Origin: a virus
Taxonomy: Duplodnaviria > Heunggongvirae > Uroviricota > Caudoviricetes > Ackermannviridae
Length of the DNA stretch: 63,904 bases
Direction: 5' to 3' (one strand)
IMG/VR virus record: IMGVR_UViG_2974516482_000001
Location: 95,225 to 159,128 of that record
A program made the position numbers and the translations under genes. Under the pieces are notes generated by a model. It worked only from the letters and a program-made list of their open reading frames with translations, was not told where the DNA came from and made no database searches. Each line of letters begins with the position of its first letter. The first letter of the stretch is position 1. Positions 5,887 through 56,944 of the stretch are shown here, piece after piece.

Positions 5887-6549
5887 ATGTCTTATTCGCT
5901 CAAAGGGCTGTTGAAGCGCCCTGTGCATTTGTTTGTCAAACCACCTGCTGTAGAAGGGGAATATTCGGCACGAGGAGAGTTGTATTACATTAAAGGCTCC
6001 AATGGTAGTGGTAAGTCTACTGTGCCTTCTTATTTGGCGGAGAATGATCCTCAGGCGTATGTCGTAACCCATAACAGTAAGATCATGCTCACGGTTTGTC
6101 CATCTTACAATATTGTCTGTGTCGGTAAATATGACAAGTCTAAGTCCAAAGGGGTTGATTCTCTGAAGGATACTGAGCAGATGTTGTTCGCGTTGTCTAT
6201 TGCTGACCAACCAGAATACCTGAAATATGATGTGATTTTTGAAGGCATCATTCCGTCTACATTATTGAGTTCTTGGATTCCCCGCCTGACACGCCCACCA
6301 CGTGAATTGGTCGTCCTCTTTATGGATACCCCTCTTGAAACCTGTATTGCCCGTGTTAAATCGCGTAACGGTGGCGCAGACTTCAATGAAAGTCTGGTGG
6401 TCGAGAAGTGGGAGAGAGTTCATGATCACCGTCAACGGCATAAAGGCTTGTTCCCTACCGTTCCCGCAGGTATGATGAAGTCCGATGGCCTGACTGTAGA
6501 GCAGGCTGTTTTTGCGTTTCTCAATCGTGATTTTGGGAGTATTGATTGA
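5887..6549 (+). CDS. P-loop nucleotide kinase-like protein
   Basis: Walker A GSNGSGKS, DVIFEG Walker-B-like, and a DTPLETCIARV.SR lid; directly upstream of the dUMP hydroxymethylase. Confidence 0.75.
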   Translation: MSYSLKGLLKRPVHLFVKPPAVEGEYSARGELYYIKGSNGSGKSTVPSYLAENDPQAYVVTHNSKIMLTVCPSYNIVCVGKYDKSKSKGVDSLKDTEQMLFALSIADQPEYLKYDVIFEGIIPSTLLSSWIPRLTRPPRELVVLFMDTPLETCIARVKSRNGGADFNESLVVEKWERVHDHRQRHKGLFPTVPAGMMKSDGLTVEQAVFAFLNRDFGSID

Positions 6550-48806: not shown

Positions 48807-49712
48807 CTAACCCTTACTCAACAGGCCGAGAAGGGATACAGAGGACTTTGTTACCTCTCCCTTGGCGCTCGCCTTGGTTTTAGATTTGGTCGCCTTCTCA
48901 GGGACTCGATGCGCTAGAGGATCATCCCCACCGACTTCACGCGTCATTGGGTCAGTTTCACAGAATCCGTAGAAATCTTTGATGTCCAGACCCATGGCGT
49001 GAAACTCACCACGCATTTGATGATGAATAGCGTTGCCAATCACCCACAAAGGTGCATCAAACGGCATCATGGCTAATTCGCTATCATTTCCTGTTTTGAA
49101 TTCTTGAGTGTTTGTAGACGATTGGCGATACAACACGTCTTGACCGCTGTAATCATTGACCACCACTTCCCAACCCAGCGCCAGCATTTCAGTCTTCGAC
49201 TTCTCAAACTCCTTGGAGTAAGATTCGTTGCGTGACCAGCCGGAGTCCCCTGCTTCCTTACCAGAGCGACCACGGATGCGTGCATCATACTGATAGCGGT
49301 CTGGGTATGCAAAATAAAGCAACGCCAGAGATTCAATCGGATAGTTCTTGAACATCCATTCAGGACGCCATTTATCCGATAGCATGAGGGGTTCACCCTC
49401 GCACACCAAAGTGTAACCCTGAGCCAGCCAGCCTTTGACCAGATCACGGGCGATATCACCCGAGCCTGTGGCAGCATGAATAGCATCCATGGAAGTCCAG
49501 GAAGCCAGACCGGATTTGTTGGACACAGTATACTGGCCAACGAAGATTAACTTCAGCTCTTCGAATTTCAGACCGAATGGGCGCGTCTTGTCACCAATGG
49601 TGTAGGTGAGTTCAGTAGGCTCCAGCTTAGTTCGGAGCCATTCGATGAACTGGACCACTCTCGTACCCTTGCCCGTGGCCGAGGTGCCTTTCACTACAAT
49701 TATTTTAGCCAT
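48807..49712 (-). CDS. P-loop kinase-like protein (301 aa)
   Basis: KGTSATGKGT Walker A and LVCEGEP. Confidence 0.7.
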   Translation of the reverse strand: MAKIIVVKGTSATGKGTRVVQFIEWLRTKLEPTELTYTIGDKTRPFGLKFEELKLIFVGQYTVSNKSGLASWTSMDAIHAATGSGDIARDLVKGWLAQGYTLVCEGEPLMLSDKWRPEWMFKNYPIESLALLYFAYPDRYQYDARIRGRSGKEAGDSGWSRNESYSKEFEKSKTEMLALGWEVVVNDYSGQDVLYRQSSTNTQEFKTGNDSELAMMPFDAPLWVIGNAIHHQMRGEFHAMGLDIKDFYGFCETDPMTREVGGDDPLAHRVPEKATKSKTKASAKGEVTKSSVSLLGLLSKG

Positions 49713-50391
49713 TTAATATTCTCCAACCGAGACATGTTTTAGCCCTACCTTTCAAGAGATTCGTTATATTACCAGAAGGGAGGCCATATTGAAGTTCCAT
49801 ATCGCATCTTCTTAATTCAACGATGCGACCATCTTTGTGCTGCCATTTGTAAATCGTTTCATCGCGGCCAGGACCGATGTCTATCAGGCCAAGAGCATGC
49901 AGCCTCTTCCTGGTTTCCCCTCCACGTGTTTGAGATTCTGAGGATGGTCTTGGCGGCTTTGGTATCTTCCCTTCTGACATCAATTTGCTTATGATCTTCC
50001 CCTTCCTGGCATTTGCTTCAGGGGTGAGTCTTGGAGGTGGCTTGATCTTACCTTCAGCGATCAAACGTTTGCGGGTTACGGCGCTCTTTGCGGATGACTC
50101 TGGCGTGGCCAATGGAGGCTTCCCACCCCCAGCGACCATGTTATAACACCACCCACTATCGAGGATCTCCTGGCAGACCAGTTCAGACTCTATCTCAAGG
50201 ATAAGCGAATCTTTCCCTCGGAACAGAACTTCAAACCTAAACTGATCTTCACCATATTTCTTGAACGCTCGTTGTAATGCAATGCTCCCCTGACCACACT
50301 TGTGTTCGGCCAACCGTCTATTCGGTTCAGAAGTGACACCTATATAGAATTTATGGTTAGTGAGGTTTGTGATCAGGTAGAGCGACAACAT
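49705..50391 (-). mobile_element. Free-standing GIY-YIG (Seg-like) homing endonuclease gene
   Basis: LYLITN...FYIGVT...RRLAEH, ESELV, YNMVAGG and repeated IKPPP DNA-binding modules. Confidence 0.88.
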
Positions 50392-51904: not shown

Positions 51905-53035
51905 TCAACCTTTCTTGCCCATCATGGACAACAGGTTAACTCGACGTTTATGAGACCAACCAACCACATCCAAGATAGACTGAATTGGCTCTATAAAGGT
52001 CTTTTCAAACGTGGTGTGGTAATCCACCCATTTATCCAATCCCAATTCTGGAGGAAGGAAGTCAGGGAAGGCTATGCGATCATTCCCCACAGGATTGCCA
52101 GGTTTCAGGTTAATGATTTTAACCTTATCACCGGATTCGATAGGCGGAAGACCGAGATCTTCGTGCTTATCGATCAGCTTGTTGTACATAATACAAGCCT
52201 TGGCAGCGAAGTGCGTACCGCTGATGTAATTCCCGTTCGCGTCTAACCACTTCTCAATATCGCTTACACCAGATGCCTGAGCGATATCATCCACGGTGAG
52301 TTCCATATATTCCTTTTTGTATCCAGCGATTAATTCCTGAACCTCCGCCTCAGTACCGAGCAGGACTTTCTCATAACATTTGACAAGACGCTCACGACAC
52401 CATTCCGGCGTTGTAGATTTACGCGCTTCCAGACCTTTGAATTTGATCTTTGGTTTCTCATACTTGATGCCTTCGCTATCGTATACTGCCATGCAATACA
52501 TCTTCTTGGCTCGCCATACAGCAGACGATGCGATGACCTCACGTTCCCAGACCATGCGCTGCTCAAACCCGTTCATGGTATTACACAACAACTGCGCCCA
52601 TTCACTGGTTTTTGGCTGGTAATTCTCTTTGATCCATTGGTCAATGTTATCAACGAGTTTGTGATGGTCCTTTTCTTCAGGCCACAATTGCTTGACCAGG
52701 CGTTCAATGCAAATGTAGTTGGAGTCTGTATCACCTGCGATAACAAAATCCTGACCAGTAGTACCACAAAGTTTGTTCAGATAATCATCAGTGTGGCGTT
52801 TGTTCCATTTATTGATCAGCTGGCCGGAAGTGGTAATTGCTTCAGCGATGTTGATGTTGAAGTATTCTTTAAACCAGACGTTGCTCAGAGCGCCGTAGCC
52901 AGCATTCATGAGGATTTTAAGCCCCTGCTGCATCGTATCTTGGGTGGCGGTTCTCTCATCCTGGTTAAGGATCTCTGTTTCCAACTCTTCGTCCGTCAGA
53001 GTCGTTAACCAATTTTTGTATTCTTCTGGGCTCAT
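51905..53035 (-). CDS. 43: DNA polymerase gp43, C-terminal subunit (gp43B, 376 aa)
   Basis: QGLKILMNAGYG (motif B), AGDTDS (motif C) and a C-terminal clamp-binding-like tail; own AGGTG RBS. Confidence 0.9.
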   Translation of the reverse strand: MSPEEYKNWLTTLTDEELETEILNQDERTATQDTMQQGLKILMNAGYGALSNVWFKEYFNINIAEAITTSGQLINKWNKRHTDDYLNKLCGTTGQDFVIAGDTDSNYICIERLVKQLWPEEKDHHKLVDNIDQWIKENYQPKTSEWAQLLCNTMNGFEQRMVWEREVIASSAVWRAKKMYCMAVYDSEGIKYEKPKIKFKGLEARKSTTPEWCRERLVKCYEKVLLGTEAEVQELIAGYKKEYMELTVDDIAQASGVSDIEKWLDANGNYISGTHFAAKACIMYNKLIDKHEDLGLPPIESGDKVKIINLKPGNPVGNDRIAFPDFLPPELGLDKWVDYHTTFEKTFIEPIQSILDVVGWSHKRRVNLLSMMGKKG

Positions 53036-53081
53036 ACCAATTCACCTATATATTAACGTTAGCACCGTAGAGGACACCAAC

Positions 53082-53924
53082 ATGAATTTTGAAAGATATA
53101 TTAACTTTGTTGTCGCTTGTGACAAATCCAACAGTGGTTCTTCAGCTTATCTAGAGCGCCATCACATAGACCCACTGTGTATGGGAGGGGAAGACAAACC
53201 GTACAATATTTGTTCTCTAACCGCTCGCCAACACTTCATAGCCCATTGGATGTTGTCTAGATTATACCCCGACAACCTGAAGATACTTCAGGCGTTCAAT
53301 ATCATGTTCCACGGAACAACTCGCGTTTCCCGCAATCACTTCAATTCCAAAGCATACGAGGCGCTCAAGATAAAAAGATCCTCACTGATGAAGGGTAAAT
53401 TCCCCGAACACTGGTCGGAAGAACACCGCCCGTCTAAAACAAACTCCACCCGATTTAAAGGGAAAGTGAGAGTATTCCACAAATCGAATCCGAATAAATC
53501 ATACTACGTGGCAAAGGAAGAATTCGAATCCAATCCTGACCTCACTTCATGGTCTAAAGGTTCCACTCTTGCGTATGACAAAGATGGAAACAAACACAGA
53601 GTTCGGGTTGACGATCCCCGCCTCAAAGACGGGTCTCTTACTCCTTCCGGTCGTATCATTGCCCAAAACAACAGAGGCATCAACAACGCAATGTTCAAGG
53701 GACACTACAAGACACCGTTGGGTATCTTCGCGTCCGCAAAAGAAGCCGCCGGAGTTCACGGTATACTTTGGCAAACTGTTATCAAACGGTGTCGGGATGA
53801 GAACAACAAAATCATATCTCATCCCAACACAATCAACCGATCCCAAGACCTGAACATGAACGAACATTCACATTATATCGGAAAGTCCTGGGAAGAACTC
53901 GGCTGGGGATTTATCCCTTGCTAG
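53082..53924 (+). mobile_element. Free-standing HNH homing endonuclease inserted antisense within gene 43
   Basis: ERHHIDPLCMGG...LTARQHFIAH; GAGGA RBS; start refined to 53082. Confidence 0.88.
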
Positions 53925-54343
53925 AGCGATGTTGTTTCTCCTCTTTCGCCCAAGTGAGGAGCTGTTCATGGTTCAACATGACACGTTTCTCTCCTTTACG
54001 GTCAGCGTATATGCCTCGCATAATTTCGGAAAGGAAGGACATCTTCTCATTACTGAAGAACTGAACGTTCGGGGTAAACGAAACGTTATAACGGCGTAAC
54101 GTTTCAAAATGGAATTCACCCAGCGCGACCAATTCATCAACAACTTGTATGCGTTCATCAATAGCACGCTGCAGCTTGTCGTGAAGATTTTTGAGATGAC
54201 GGCGCTTGTTCATAGGCGTTGTCATATCATTCATCGCTTTGGTCAATTCTTCACACATGGACTCAATGATATCGCGACGTGTGTGCTTGTCAGATACGAT
54301 AGTCTCCGGACCGAGGTTGTACTGCTGAATGATGTGTGGATAT
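53911..54343 (-). CDS. 43: DNA polymerase gp43A, exon 2
   Basis: (L)YPHIIQQYNLGPET...FLSEIMRGIYADRK...HRSSKG*. Confidence 0.88.
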
Positions 54344-54503
54344 CGCTTGTGTTCAGGGATGCTCGCTATTTCATCCCCCGTGTTCGTCATTCAGTTTACC
54401 GAACACTGCTGTATGTCACCATACAGGCCAGACTATATCACAATCTCCAGAACTGTCTAGAGATTCTCTCCATTTCGAGGCGCTTGCCCCTACTCTACTC
54501 GCT

Positions 54504-55382
54504 TCAGATCAGACGCTTAGTCGTCGGTCTTGCTTTCGATAGTCGTTGAACCTTGTCACCCACTACTTCAAGGAAATCATCTGGGTTCAACCCAGCGTAA
54601 CCAAAGAGTCGTTTGAAGTTTCTTGCCAACTTGCCCCACTCTACAGTCTTCTTACCTAAATCCTGTTGTGACAAGCAATGAGCAGTTATTTCTTCCCCAT
54701 TCATTCTGGCAAACATTTCCTTTCTTTTCTCTAAAGAATCTTTAAATTTCTTCTTCGCTTTCGGGTCGGTGTTTGGTCCCACCTGACCTTTCTTTGCGCC
54801 TATTATACATTTCAACTCACCTCTCAAATATCTTGGGTCTTGTGTTGAAACTTTAATAACACTACCATCCGGGAGCCTTACGGGTGCTGTTCCTTTATGA
54901 ACTCGACTGGAATTAGCTTTAATTCTTTCGGTAGTTTCTTCATCAGCACCGAAGTAAGTTTTGCCTGCCATGTCTTTCCGTTTGACACCCTTCTTAGATT
55001 CTGATATCTTTCTTCTGACATCATCCCTCTTCGAAGGATTCCCTTCTCCTGTTAACATTTCAACGTTCTTTCTTCTTAGTTCTTCACTTAATTCCCCGTT
55101 ATGGGATTTCATCATGAAGTAGGCGAAGAACGCCGACTTGTCTCCTGGTAATGCTTCGTGTAACAGGCGATGAGCCTCCACATGATCTTTGTACAACAGG
55201 TTTACGATGTTCCATTCTTCTTTAGAGAACTCAGGATAATGCGCCTGAGGCAGTATGTGATGGCGTTCACTGTATTCATCACCACCATAACTGTGTTCCT
55301 TACAAAACTTCAAATATTCTTCTATCTTAGATTCTTCAATTACCAAATCTTTTCGATAGAACAGACTCTTGATTTCCTTCAT
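54504..55382 (-). CDS. Intron-encoded HNH homing endonuclease (292 aa)
   Basis: ERHHILPQA...NIVNL..KDHVEAH and NUMOD-like GNPSKR; the 3' end overlaps the intron core. Confidence 0.9.
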   Translation of the reverse strand: MKEIKSLFYRKDLVIEESKIEEYLKFCKEHSYGGDEYSERHHILPQAHYPEFSKEEWNIVNLLYKDHVEAHRLLHEALPGDKSAFFAYFMMKSHNGELSEELRRKNVEMLTGEGNPSKRDDVRRKISESKKGVKRKDMAGKTYFGADEETTERIKANSSRVHKGTAPVRLPDGSVIKVSTQDPRYLRGELKCIIGAKKGQVGPNTDPKAKKKFKDSLEKRKEMFARMNGEEITAHCLSQQDLGKKTVEWGKLARNFKRLFGYAGLNPDDFLEVVGDKVQRLSKARPTTKRLI

Positions 55383-55421
55383 GACCTTACTCCTTCACCG
55401 TGGTTACAGAGTATTTAGGTC
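55383..55421 (-). promoter_or_regulatory. Late promoter CCTAAATAC with an RBS-sequestering hairpin for the intron HNH
   Basis: gacct..tactc / gagta.aggtc arms; the 3' arm overlaps the AAGGAG RBS. Confidence 0.7.
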
Positions 55422-55526
55422 TTCATGGCCGACCTTGGCTGCTGATTATCTCTGATGAGACTTCCCAGCAATTAAGAGAGTTATTCGATGGTTGTCGCCA
55501 ACCAAAGCCCCTATGCTGCTAATTTA

Positions 55527-56944
55527 AGGGAGTTCAAGTCCTCAGAGAAGACCCAGAAATATATCCCTGGTGTAACCTCCATGACATATGCGCCTTCAAA
55601 GTCCGTTGGACCATCATATACGCGCTGTATTTTAGGGACAATCCCTTTTTCATAAAGACGATAGTAACACATCGCCAGCCATGGCGCTACAGTCCCCAGA
55701 CCGTCTTCATAGTTAGATTTGGTGCGATACGCCAATACGAACATCAGCTGTATCAAACGCAGCTTTTGTTCTAAACGCCACACGAGTTTGACGTCTTTGA
55801 TACCATATCGGGTGTGCTTGCAATAATCATTAAAATATAGATCATACAATGACTTGCTTTCACTATAATCCAACTTCTTCTCACCAAGTTCACAATAAGC
55901 GATCCAATCCAGTGAGTATTTTTCGCGGGTTGTGTACGTGTGTTTCTTGTAAACTTGCATGTAGTCCATCATAGGACAACCCACGAATTGATAAGAAGTC
56001 ACGTCGCCTTTACGGTCTTTGATGAAACGTTTCTTGAGTTTGCCCCAAGGACTGAGGCGCTCTGCCTGAGTTTCACCGAGAACCTGCGTAATACGTTCAA
56101 CCAAGTACGGGCTATCAAACGTTTCGATGTTCCAGCCAGTCCAACCATCAAATTGACGTTCAGACCAATAATCTAAGAAAGCGCGAAGAAGTTCTTGTTC
56201 AGTCGTGTATTCTTTGTATTCAACCTCAAGACCACCTATCTCTTCATCATTTGTATCATATTTGAATTTATGGCGATCCTTAGAGCACGGCATACCCCAG
56301 ACATAGAACTTGTTGGTGTTCATGTCTTGAAGCTGGATGAGCGTAATAGGGAAGGCGGCATTCATGTTCTGTGTGATCTTACCATTACTATCAATGATAG
56401 GGAACTGGTCAGTCACGTTGTTGGAAATAAAGGAACCTGGGAAATGCTCTCGAACGAAATCATGGTTGGCCAACACTTGCTTATGGAATCGGCGAACACG
56501 CGCCTCGCTCCCCTTAAACGTGTGGGATTCAATCGTCGCGTGAGGAAATGGGCCTTTAGTCATTTCTCCATCGCGCCACCCAGCCGAGAAAACTTCGATA
56601 TCCACGTTGGCGATGTGAATATTTGAGTAATCGGGGGTAATCATCCCAGGAAAACTATGCGCTATGAATTGATATGCATAATCCGTTTGTCCGTAAACGG
56701 CAGCGCCTTCGACCTCCTTATACTCCTCCAGATAGTTGTCGGCGTCACGCATTGACGCAAATTTTTTAGACACCAACGGTTCATTGAGGAGGCCAATCTT
56801 TTCAACTTTGGAATAATCGGCTGTGGGTAAATACAAGGTGGGTTCGAATTTCTTACGCAACATACGGCGATTGCCGTTGTCGTCTGCAATACGAATCAGA
56901 AGGTCGTTACCCTGTCGGGCAACGTTCGTATAGAAAACAGTCAT
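55527..56944 (-). CDS. 43: DNA polymerase gp43A, exon 1 (3'-5' exonuclease and palm motif A)
   Basis: DIEV, TGWNIETFD, YSLD, YGIKDV and FEGAYV...DLNS motifs. Start refined to MTVFYTN after GGAG. Confidence 0.93.

Follow-up and report, generated by a model that had tools for sequence, protein, structure and literature searches.

An antisense homing endonuclease gene and the probable division of a Kuttervirus family-B DNA polymerase into two cistrons

When a homing endonuclease gene (HEG) lies across a phage's gene for DNA polymerase, is the interruption an intron that is removed to restore a single polymerase, or has the gene become two genes, each encoding one part of the enzyme? This question is raised by a locus in the virus record IMGVR_UViG_2974516482_000001. 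The stretch of DNA analyzed here (63,904 nucleotides, nt; hereafter "the window") is part of this complete record of 159,128 bp, which nucleotide identity places in the genus Kuttervirus (Ackermannviridae). It carries a gene for a family-B DNA polymerase (PolB), which lies on the minus strand in three pieces separated by two interruptions; a second PolB is absent from the genome, which leaves the interrupted gene as its only family-B polymerase. The first interruption is, as judged from its sequence, an ordinary group I intron. For the second, designated insert 2, comparative sequence analysis favors, with a probability of roughly 0.8, the reading that it is not an intron and that it splits PolB into two separately translated cistrons, designated gp43A and gp43B. 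GenBank and the literature already contain the element as such, labeled a 'putative intron'; what is new is its reading and its history.

Anatomy of the interrupted polymerase gene

The PolB gene starts with an ATG at position 56944. Exon 1 (55527..56944, minus strand) covers the N-terminal and the exonuclease domain, reaches as far as motif A (...DLNSL) and is 98.8% identical to the intact allele of phage PhaxI. It is followed by intron 1 (54344..55526, minus strand, 1183 nt), which is located within motif A (SL|YP) and matches the Rfam group I model RF00028 at 54680-54409 (29.8 bits, E=1.2e-4). A U precedes the 5' splice site, the intron terminates with a G, and joining of the exons as CT|A restores the motif A sequence DLNSL-YPHII. 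Exon 2 (53911..54343, minus strand) ends with a TAA at 53913-53911, which closes gp43A. The last 24 codons in front of this stop codon (53985-53914, minus strand; RVML...SSKG), subsequently designated the tail, are of Limestonevirus type. Spliced gp43A, consisting of exons 1 and 2, comprises 616 amino acids (aa) and 72.6 kDa.

Insert 2 (53036..53910, 875 nt) extends from the stop codon of gp43A to the ATG of gp43B and is missing from intact alleles. It is covered to 96% by a free-standing HNH homing endonuclease gene (53082..53924, plus strand, 280 aa, stop codon TAG), which is antisense to the polymerase, overlaps the end of exon 2 tail-to-tail by 14 nt and equals the element named 'I-LimIII' in phage LIMEstone1. 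Between the start codons of the HNH gene and of gp43B lies a divergent spacer of 46 nt (53036..53081), which contains both ribosome-binding sites: GAGGA at 53070-53074, 7 nt before the ATG of the HNH gene, and AGGTG at 53047-53043, which precedes the gp43B ATG at 53035 with a spacing of 7 nt. A block of 23 nt within this spacer, GCTAACGTTAATATATAGGTGAA, is identical in the window, in LIMEstone1 and in Dickeya phage XF4. The gp43B cistron (51905..53035, minus strand; 376 aa, 43.3 kDa; PF00136) encodes the second fingers helix and motif B, the remaining palm (DTDS) and the thumb. Across the pieces, the hallmarks of a PolB are present, i.e. the exonuclease domain, DLNSL|YP (motif A, across intron 1) and, in gp43B, KILMNAGYG (motif B) and GDTDS (motif C). 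The coordinates and sizes given for this locus by the initial annotation, namely the TAA, the tail-to-tail overlap, ATG 53035 with its AGGTG, the 875 nt between the cistrons, the 46-nt spacer and the products of 616 and 376 aa, were all reproduced.

Where does the break fall in the protein? The gp43A tail aligns to residues 477-505 of RB69 gp43, which comprise the R482/K486 helix. A profile of gp43B matches gp43 of T4 and RB69 from residues 525/527 to the end (E=1e-117 to 1e-119), its head beginning at residue 527 of RB69 gp43, in front of motif B. As the tail ends at residue 505 and the head begins at residue 527, the cut maps to the loop that connects both long helices of the fingers. This mapping (~506-526) agrees with the earlier proposal that the break lies in the fingers, between the RK..K helix and the motif-B helix.

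Two cistrons or an intron

Evidence for separate translation of the two cistrons comes from comparison with XF4, whose copy is 82% identical. XF4 keeps the stop codon of gp43A, the AGGTG Shine-Dalgarno (SD) sequence, the 7-nt spacing and the ATG of gp43B. Coding constraint extends right up to the borders of insert 2: against XF4, the 24-codon tail exhibits a nonsynonymous divergence (pN) of 0.18 versus a synonymous divergence (pS) of 0.93, and for the head of gp43B (29 codons) the ratio of nonsynonymous to synonymous change (omega) is 0.07. Both termini are under purifying selection and are therefore read as protein. The initial annotation had proposed to align the junction with uninterrupted alleles. 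Intact alleles such as that of PhaxI (999 aa) are devoid of both inserts, and tail and head match the fingers tip of uninterrupted polymerases of Ackermannviridae, from which they differ by the loss of only ~7-14 residues at its extreme end.

The alternative is the reading adopted for LIMEstone1, according to which insert 2 is a self-splicing intron, of group I or of an unrecognised class, with the antisense endonuclease gene inside it, and its removal would yield one polymerase of ~990 aa. We regard this as unlikely, but a number of observations speak in its favor and hence weigh against a split gene. The LIMEstone1 publication labels the element a putative intron, 'I-LimIII', a designation derived from the gene interruption alone, with no test of splicing, RNA or protein (Adriaenssens et al. 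2012, PMC3296691); the intron label for gene 43 of LIMEstone1 to which the initial annotation refers is thus real. A genuine group I intron harboring a related HNH gene (28% identity) is located 430 nt upstream. The polymerase-strand RNA of insert 2 folds better than shuffled sequences (z -4.45), and two tandem hairpins right after the gp43A stop codon (53789..53905, minus strand) are even more conspicuous, with a ΔG of -53.4 kcal/mol, a z of -6.75 and none of 200 shuffles as good. Synonymous divergence of the HNH open reading frame (ORF) between the window and XF4 falls to pS 0.08-0.30 at 53350-53500 and 53742-53831, compared to 0.5-1.0 elsewhere; these patches could reflect recombination or a signal, at the RNA or DNA level, that overlaps the gene, and an RNA element would argue for the intron. 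For the window as well as for XF4 it is possible to draw in-frame junctions in which a U precedes the 5' site and the intron closes with a G, a combination that chance alone readily produces. Finally, the Rfam group I model is only modestly sensitive, and both positive controls described below score under its gathering score.

Several lines of comparison speak against the intron. No group I or group II signal was detectable in region 52900-54050 on either strand, using Rfam at a permissive threshold of E<=10. As positive controls, the Rfam search detected intron 1 (29.8 bits), and a permissive small-window search like that applied to insert 2 detected the motif-A intron of L013, an unrelated metagenomic contig treated below (38.7 bits). 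Because these two introns are found, the null result for insert 2 is meaningful, though not absolute. No R- or S-like core motifs are present in insert 2 when up to one mismatch is allowed, and together with the Rfam result this bears out the earlier remark that the insert lacks the group I R/S motifs. Just 46 nt of insert 2 lie outside the strongly constrained antisense ORF (omega 0.08 between the window and XF4), and there is no room for a ribozyme because this ORF, which is under purifying selection, fills all the rest. RNAalifold provided no covariation support in insert 2 (covariation term +0.88; 5 of 303 pairs compensatory), an analysis of low power with three sequence types from two diverged lineages. 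The favorable folding of insert 2 was likewise not counted toward a ribozyme: a comparable z of -3.7 is obtained for the antisense strand of intron 1, a strand with no role as RNA, and covariation is missing. Last, the SD sequence and ATG are conserved exactly where homology to intact polymerases resumes, and they would have no role in an intron. Taken together, the claim of two subunits and no intron made by the initial annotation has comparative support, through the missing ribozyme signal, the conserved SD, ATG and stop, the selected termini and the position of the break point. Its further inference of an endonuclease-created split needs amendment, as detailed below.

Could a single polymerase nevertheless arise by other means? 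Bypass of the insert by the ribosome in the manner of T4 gene 60 was rejected in view of its length of 875 nt, and read-through of the stop codon because the frame closes again after ~31 codons. A post-translational joining of the halves by a split intein is hardly credible. Dassa et al. reportedly described in 2009 such fractured genes, in which the host gene is cut in two and the HEG lies in the gap between the split-intein halves. The layout of host half, HEG and host half resembles this situation, and intein domains do occur in some distant gp43B relatives (PF14890 on P0051 and P0061). However, the window is devoid of intein halves: with 24 aa in the tail and 29 aa in the head there is no space for an N-intein of ~100 aa, both termini can be aligned with normal fingers sequence from uninterrupted polymerases, and Pfam assigns only DNA_pol_B, and no Hint/intein domain, to both pieces. 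A fusion of the halves as proteins is accordingly not expected. It is also very improbable, if slightly less so, that the locus represents a broken and decaying allele whose polymerase is non-functional or partly functional, the phage being kept alive by other means. In favor of decay, the record stems from a sequence collection and the viability of this exact genome is undocumented. However, phage KE30, whose cassette is 100% identical, is a productive, plaque-forming lytic phage. The cassette is moreover present in all 19 Dickeya Limestonevirus records, including phages used in biocontrol trials, and both halves are under purifying selection. The LIMEstone phages have been propagated and applied on potato (PMC3296691). 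As KE30 is productive, the LIMEstone phages are propagated and a second PolB is absent, the interrupted gene must work.

Expression of the two cistrons and the endonuclease genes

If insert 2 separates two cistrons, gp43A would be made following group I splicing of intron 1, and its 24-residue tail would form the end of the first fingers helix. Translation of gp43B would initiate independently at AGGTG-N7-ATG, and the protein would open with the second helix of the fingers, motif B coming next. Both polypeptides are predicted to assemble non-covalently into an active enzyme, by analogy to the split gp43 reported for T4-like Aeromonas phages.

How might gp43B be transcribed? According to the initial annotation, gp43B had to be transcribed through the antisense gene. 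Such read-through is not required: a sigma-70-like promoter sequence, TTGTCA-16-TAATAT (53098..53125, minus strand), is located upstream of gp43B, both hexamers being kept in XF4, and strong hairpins follow the gp43A stop codon. The first 20 codons of the HNH gene, which overlap this sequence, show little synonymous change. Matches to the promoter consensus are not enriched in the region (12 versus 9.9 in shuffled sequences), and TTGTCA-16-TAATAT is therefore regarded as a candidate only, from which gp43B may be transcribed. The 10-mer GTTAATATAT occurs twice upstream of gp43B (minus strand, 53098-53107 and 53046-53055), 52 nt apart; one copy constitutes the -10 hexamer region of the candidate promoter and the other adjoins the SD sequence, and both copies are kept in XF4. 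The tandem hairpins (53905-53789) are both found in XF4 as well (z -3.2) and are weaker on the plus strand. They may act as a 3'-end stabiliser, a pause site or a processing site.

The initial annotation had further assigned a late-promoter-like box to the antisense HNH gene, CCTATATA at 53045-53052, which overlaps the SD sequence of gp43B. This assignment could not be upheld: the box differs from the CTAAATA(C) motif upstream of the intronic HNH gene and is not close to the late promoter sequence of T4, TATAAATA, either. A late-promoter-like CTAAATAC is found at 55418, ahead of the HNH ORF of intron 1, and the annotation of LIMEstone1 marks the motif CTAAATAC as late promoter.

The protein encoded by the antisense HNH gene matches phrog_655 'homing endonuclease' (E=1e-45) and phrog_12434 (E=2e-10), and it has no match in Pfam-A. 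It exhibits the HH...N...H catalytic motif (ERHHIDP...YNI...QHFIAH), which is kept in XF4, and is predicted to possess endonuclease activity. As its omega is 0.08, the ORF represents a maintained gene. A longer form of 338 aa starting at 52908, as annotated for KE30 in GenBank (L004, 3680-4696), begins inside the gp43B coding region and was rejected, given that XF4 lacks this ATG and has a stop codon in the extension. The KE30 annotation is thus probably an over-call, and the start at 53082 is probably the true one.

The antisense HNH protein is a distant paralogue (28% identity) of the one encoded in intron 1. The latter is specified by a same-strand ORF (55382-54504, 292 aa) and is a full-length member of phrog_12434 (E=1e-160). 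Over its middle (54900-55100), this intronic gene shares no more than 64-75% identity with its counterparts in KE30, SeF6a and LIMEstone1, compared to 91-100% for the ends of the intron. With a diverged middle between conserved intron ends, intron 1 thus combines a conserved ribozyme with an endonuclease gene of mosaic structure. A third gene of homing-endonuclease type is located nearby (49705-50391, minus strand) and encodes a GIY-YIG protein of 228 aa (PF01541, E=4.5e-8). It is placed between a gene for a 5-hmdU DNA kinase (PF18747) and a small ORF.

Origin, relatives and meaning of the split

Three types of PolB alleles are found in Kuttervirus. Most records, PhaxI, SFP10 and others, have an intact gene of 999 aa; a few, SeF6a and LPST94, carry intron 1 only; and KE30, KE31 and the genome studied here carry both inserts. 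Both inserts are also present in all 19 Dickeya Limestonevirus records. Since the same arrangement recurs in these 19 records and in two other Salmonella phages, and since PhaxI has an intact allele, it has not arisen by chance.

The distribution of identity along the gene reveals how the split was acquired. A tract of ~1.1 kb, from 53988 to ~52877 (52877..53988), is 98.5-98.9% identical to 17 of the Dickeya Limestonevirus records and 100% identical to KE30 and KE31, whereas the neighboring exons of the window are only ~65-83% identical to LIMEstone1. The tract comprises the gp43A tail, the HNH gene, the spacer and the gp43B head through motif B. Base-level comparison located the crossovers at 53985-53989, i.e. 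at the GEK|RVML boundary, and at 52871-52883, just past motif B. A near-identical tract embedded in diverged exons indicates that the split was imported ready-made, by homing with co-conversion of the flanks. This amends the initial annotation's inference of an endonuclease-created split: the split was not created in this genome, as stop codon, HEG, SD sequence and start codon arrived as one tract from a Limestonevirus-type donor, a distantly related phage of a plant pathogen. A single homing and gene-conversion event in the Kuttervirus lineage would have replaced ~75 nt upstream and ~155-160 nt downstream of the break. Intron 1 and the cassette came in separate events, given that exon 2, which lies between them, is of Kuttervirus type. 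The direction of transfer was most simply from a Limestonevirus-type phage to Kuttervirus, because the cassette is fixed and diversified in Limestonevirus, where it includes the XF4 type, and is rare and uniform in Kuttervirus. A scan of IMG/VR for further copies of the HNH cassette retrieved only LIMEstone1 itself and distant HNH genes, four of them located behind the motif-A region in other PolB genes.

Is the break point peculiar to these phages? A search with gp43B retrieved dozens of proteins of 360-400 aa with 30-43% identity, and most of the aligned ones start at the same place, a helix cap with the pattern L..L(S/T)..EL. Many T4-like metagenomic phages possess separate A and B cistrons that are broken at the same position of the fingers tip, in some cases without any insert. 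In two contigs nothing intervenes, the cistrons overlapping by ATGA (L012) or abutting (L014); two ORFs separate A and B in L011; and in L013 the gap is ~2.9 kb with six ORFs and ends in an HNH gene of antisense orientation, immediately upstream of gp43B. These uncultured phages share the break position with the window, but their PolB identity is only 30-43%. L013 (400-7200), a T4-like metagenome contig of 154,627 bp from ENA whose PolB is ~33% identical, shows the same double interruption as the window. Its group I intron is inserted at the same SL|YP site and encodes an HNH protein related to that of intron 1 (34% identity, E=7e-39), and its antisense HNH protein is related to that of insert 2 (31% identity, E=1e-12). 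This suggests that two site-specific HEG lineages have persisted across phage families. Pseudomonas phage pf16 (L037) has an intact PolB of 878 aa, and its relative L012 is split at the fingers tip (5990-6010); the two differ there by more than a simple frameshift.

From these comparisons we consider it likely, if somewhat less firmly than the split itself, that homing can transmit a gene fission. A module consisting of the stop codon, the antisense HNH gene, a ribosome-binding site, a start codon and divergent fingers-tip sequence, derived from a Limestonevirus-type donor of another subfamily, would have turned an intact single-chain Kuttervirus PolB into a two-subunit enzyme in one conversion, and the fingers tip would represent a recurrent landing site for an HEG lineage in Ackermannviridae and T4-like phages.

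Split polymerase genes have a precedent. In the T4-like phages 44RR and 25 of Aeromonas salmonicida, gene 43 is split into 43A and 43B, and the halves co-purify and are active as polymerase (Petrov et al., cited by Edgell, Gibb & Belfort 2010, PMC2988022). The initial annotation had pointed to gp43A/B natively split at the fingers in some T4-like phages of Aeromonas and Acinetobacter, and a split gene 43 in Aeromonas phages is borne out by this review. As in the window, the PolB of these phages consists of two polypeptides, the gap between A and B holds a free-standing HEG, seg43(25), and elsewhere the gene contains a group I intron (PMC2988022). Unlike them, the window belongs to the Ackermannviridae, its HEG is of HNH and not of GIY-YIG (seg) type, is antisense and overlaps the stop codon of the A cistron, and its intron resides in the A part and not in 43B. 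Moreover, in the present case the comparison shows the split module to have moved between subfamilies.

Further cases of such HEGs are mobE within nrdA of Aeromonas phage Aeh1, which the initial annotation had correctly cited, and, in T4, mobA next to the split gene for topoisomerase (PMC2988022). In Aeh1 a free-standing HEG of HNH type also lies inside the gene of an essential enzyme, and the two polypeptides reassemble to an active protein (PMC2988022). However, the host gene is a different one, mobE has the same orientation as nrdA, and that split is not known to have been transferred between families. The closest counterpart is the group ORF180 / I-LimIII (ORF181) / ORF182 of LIMEstone1 (PMC3296691), which is the same element, colinear and with a cassette 98.6% identical; in the window this cassette resides in a Kuttervirus background whose exons share only ~75% identity with LIMEstone1. 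No relevant literature was found on DNA polymerase introns of Kuttervirus, on transcriptomes of Limestonevirus or on gp43A/gp43B by name.

Reading insert 2 as a boundary between two cistrons would correct a standing annotation, i.e. the labels 'intron I-LimIII' and 'DNA polymerase x3' in ~20 Dickeya phage genomes, some of them of biocontrol phages, and in several Salmonella phages. It would also add the Ackermannviridae to the T4-like Aeromonas phages as carriers of a split replicative PolB. The locus would represent a clean and recent case of a homing endonuclease that carries the change of an essential enzyme from one chain to two across the boundaries of subfamily and host genus. Finally, near-isogenic Kuttervirus phages with an intact gene (PhaxI, SFP10), with the intron only (SeF6a) and with intron plus split (KE30 and the present genome) provide a natural experiment, and with these alleles it can be tested directly whether a polymerase gains or loses by being split at the fingers, where dNTPs are bound.

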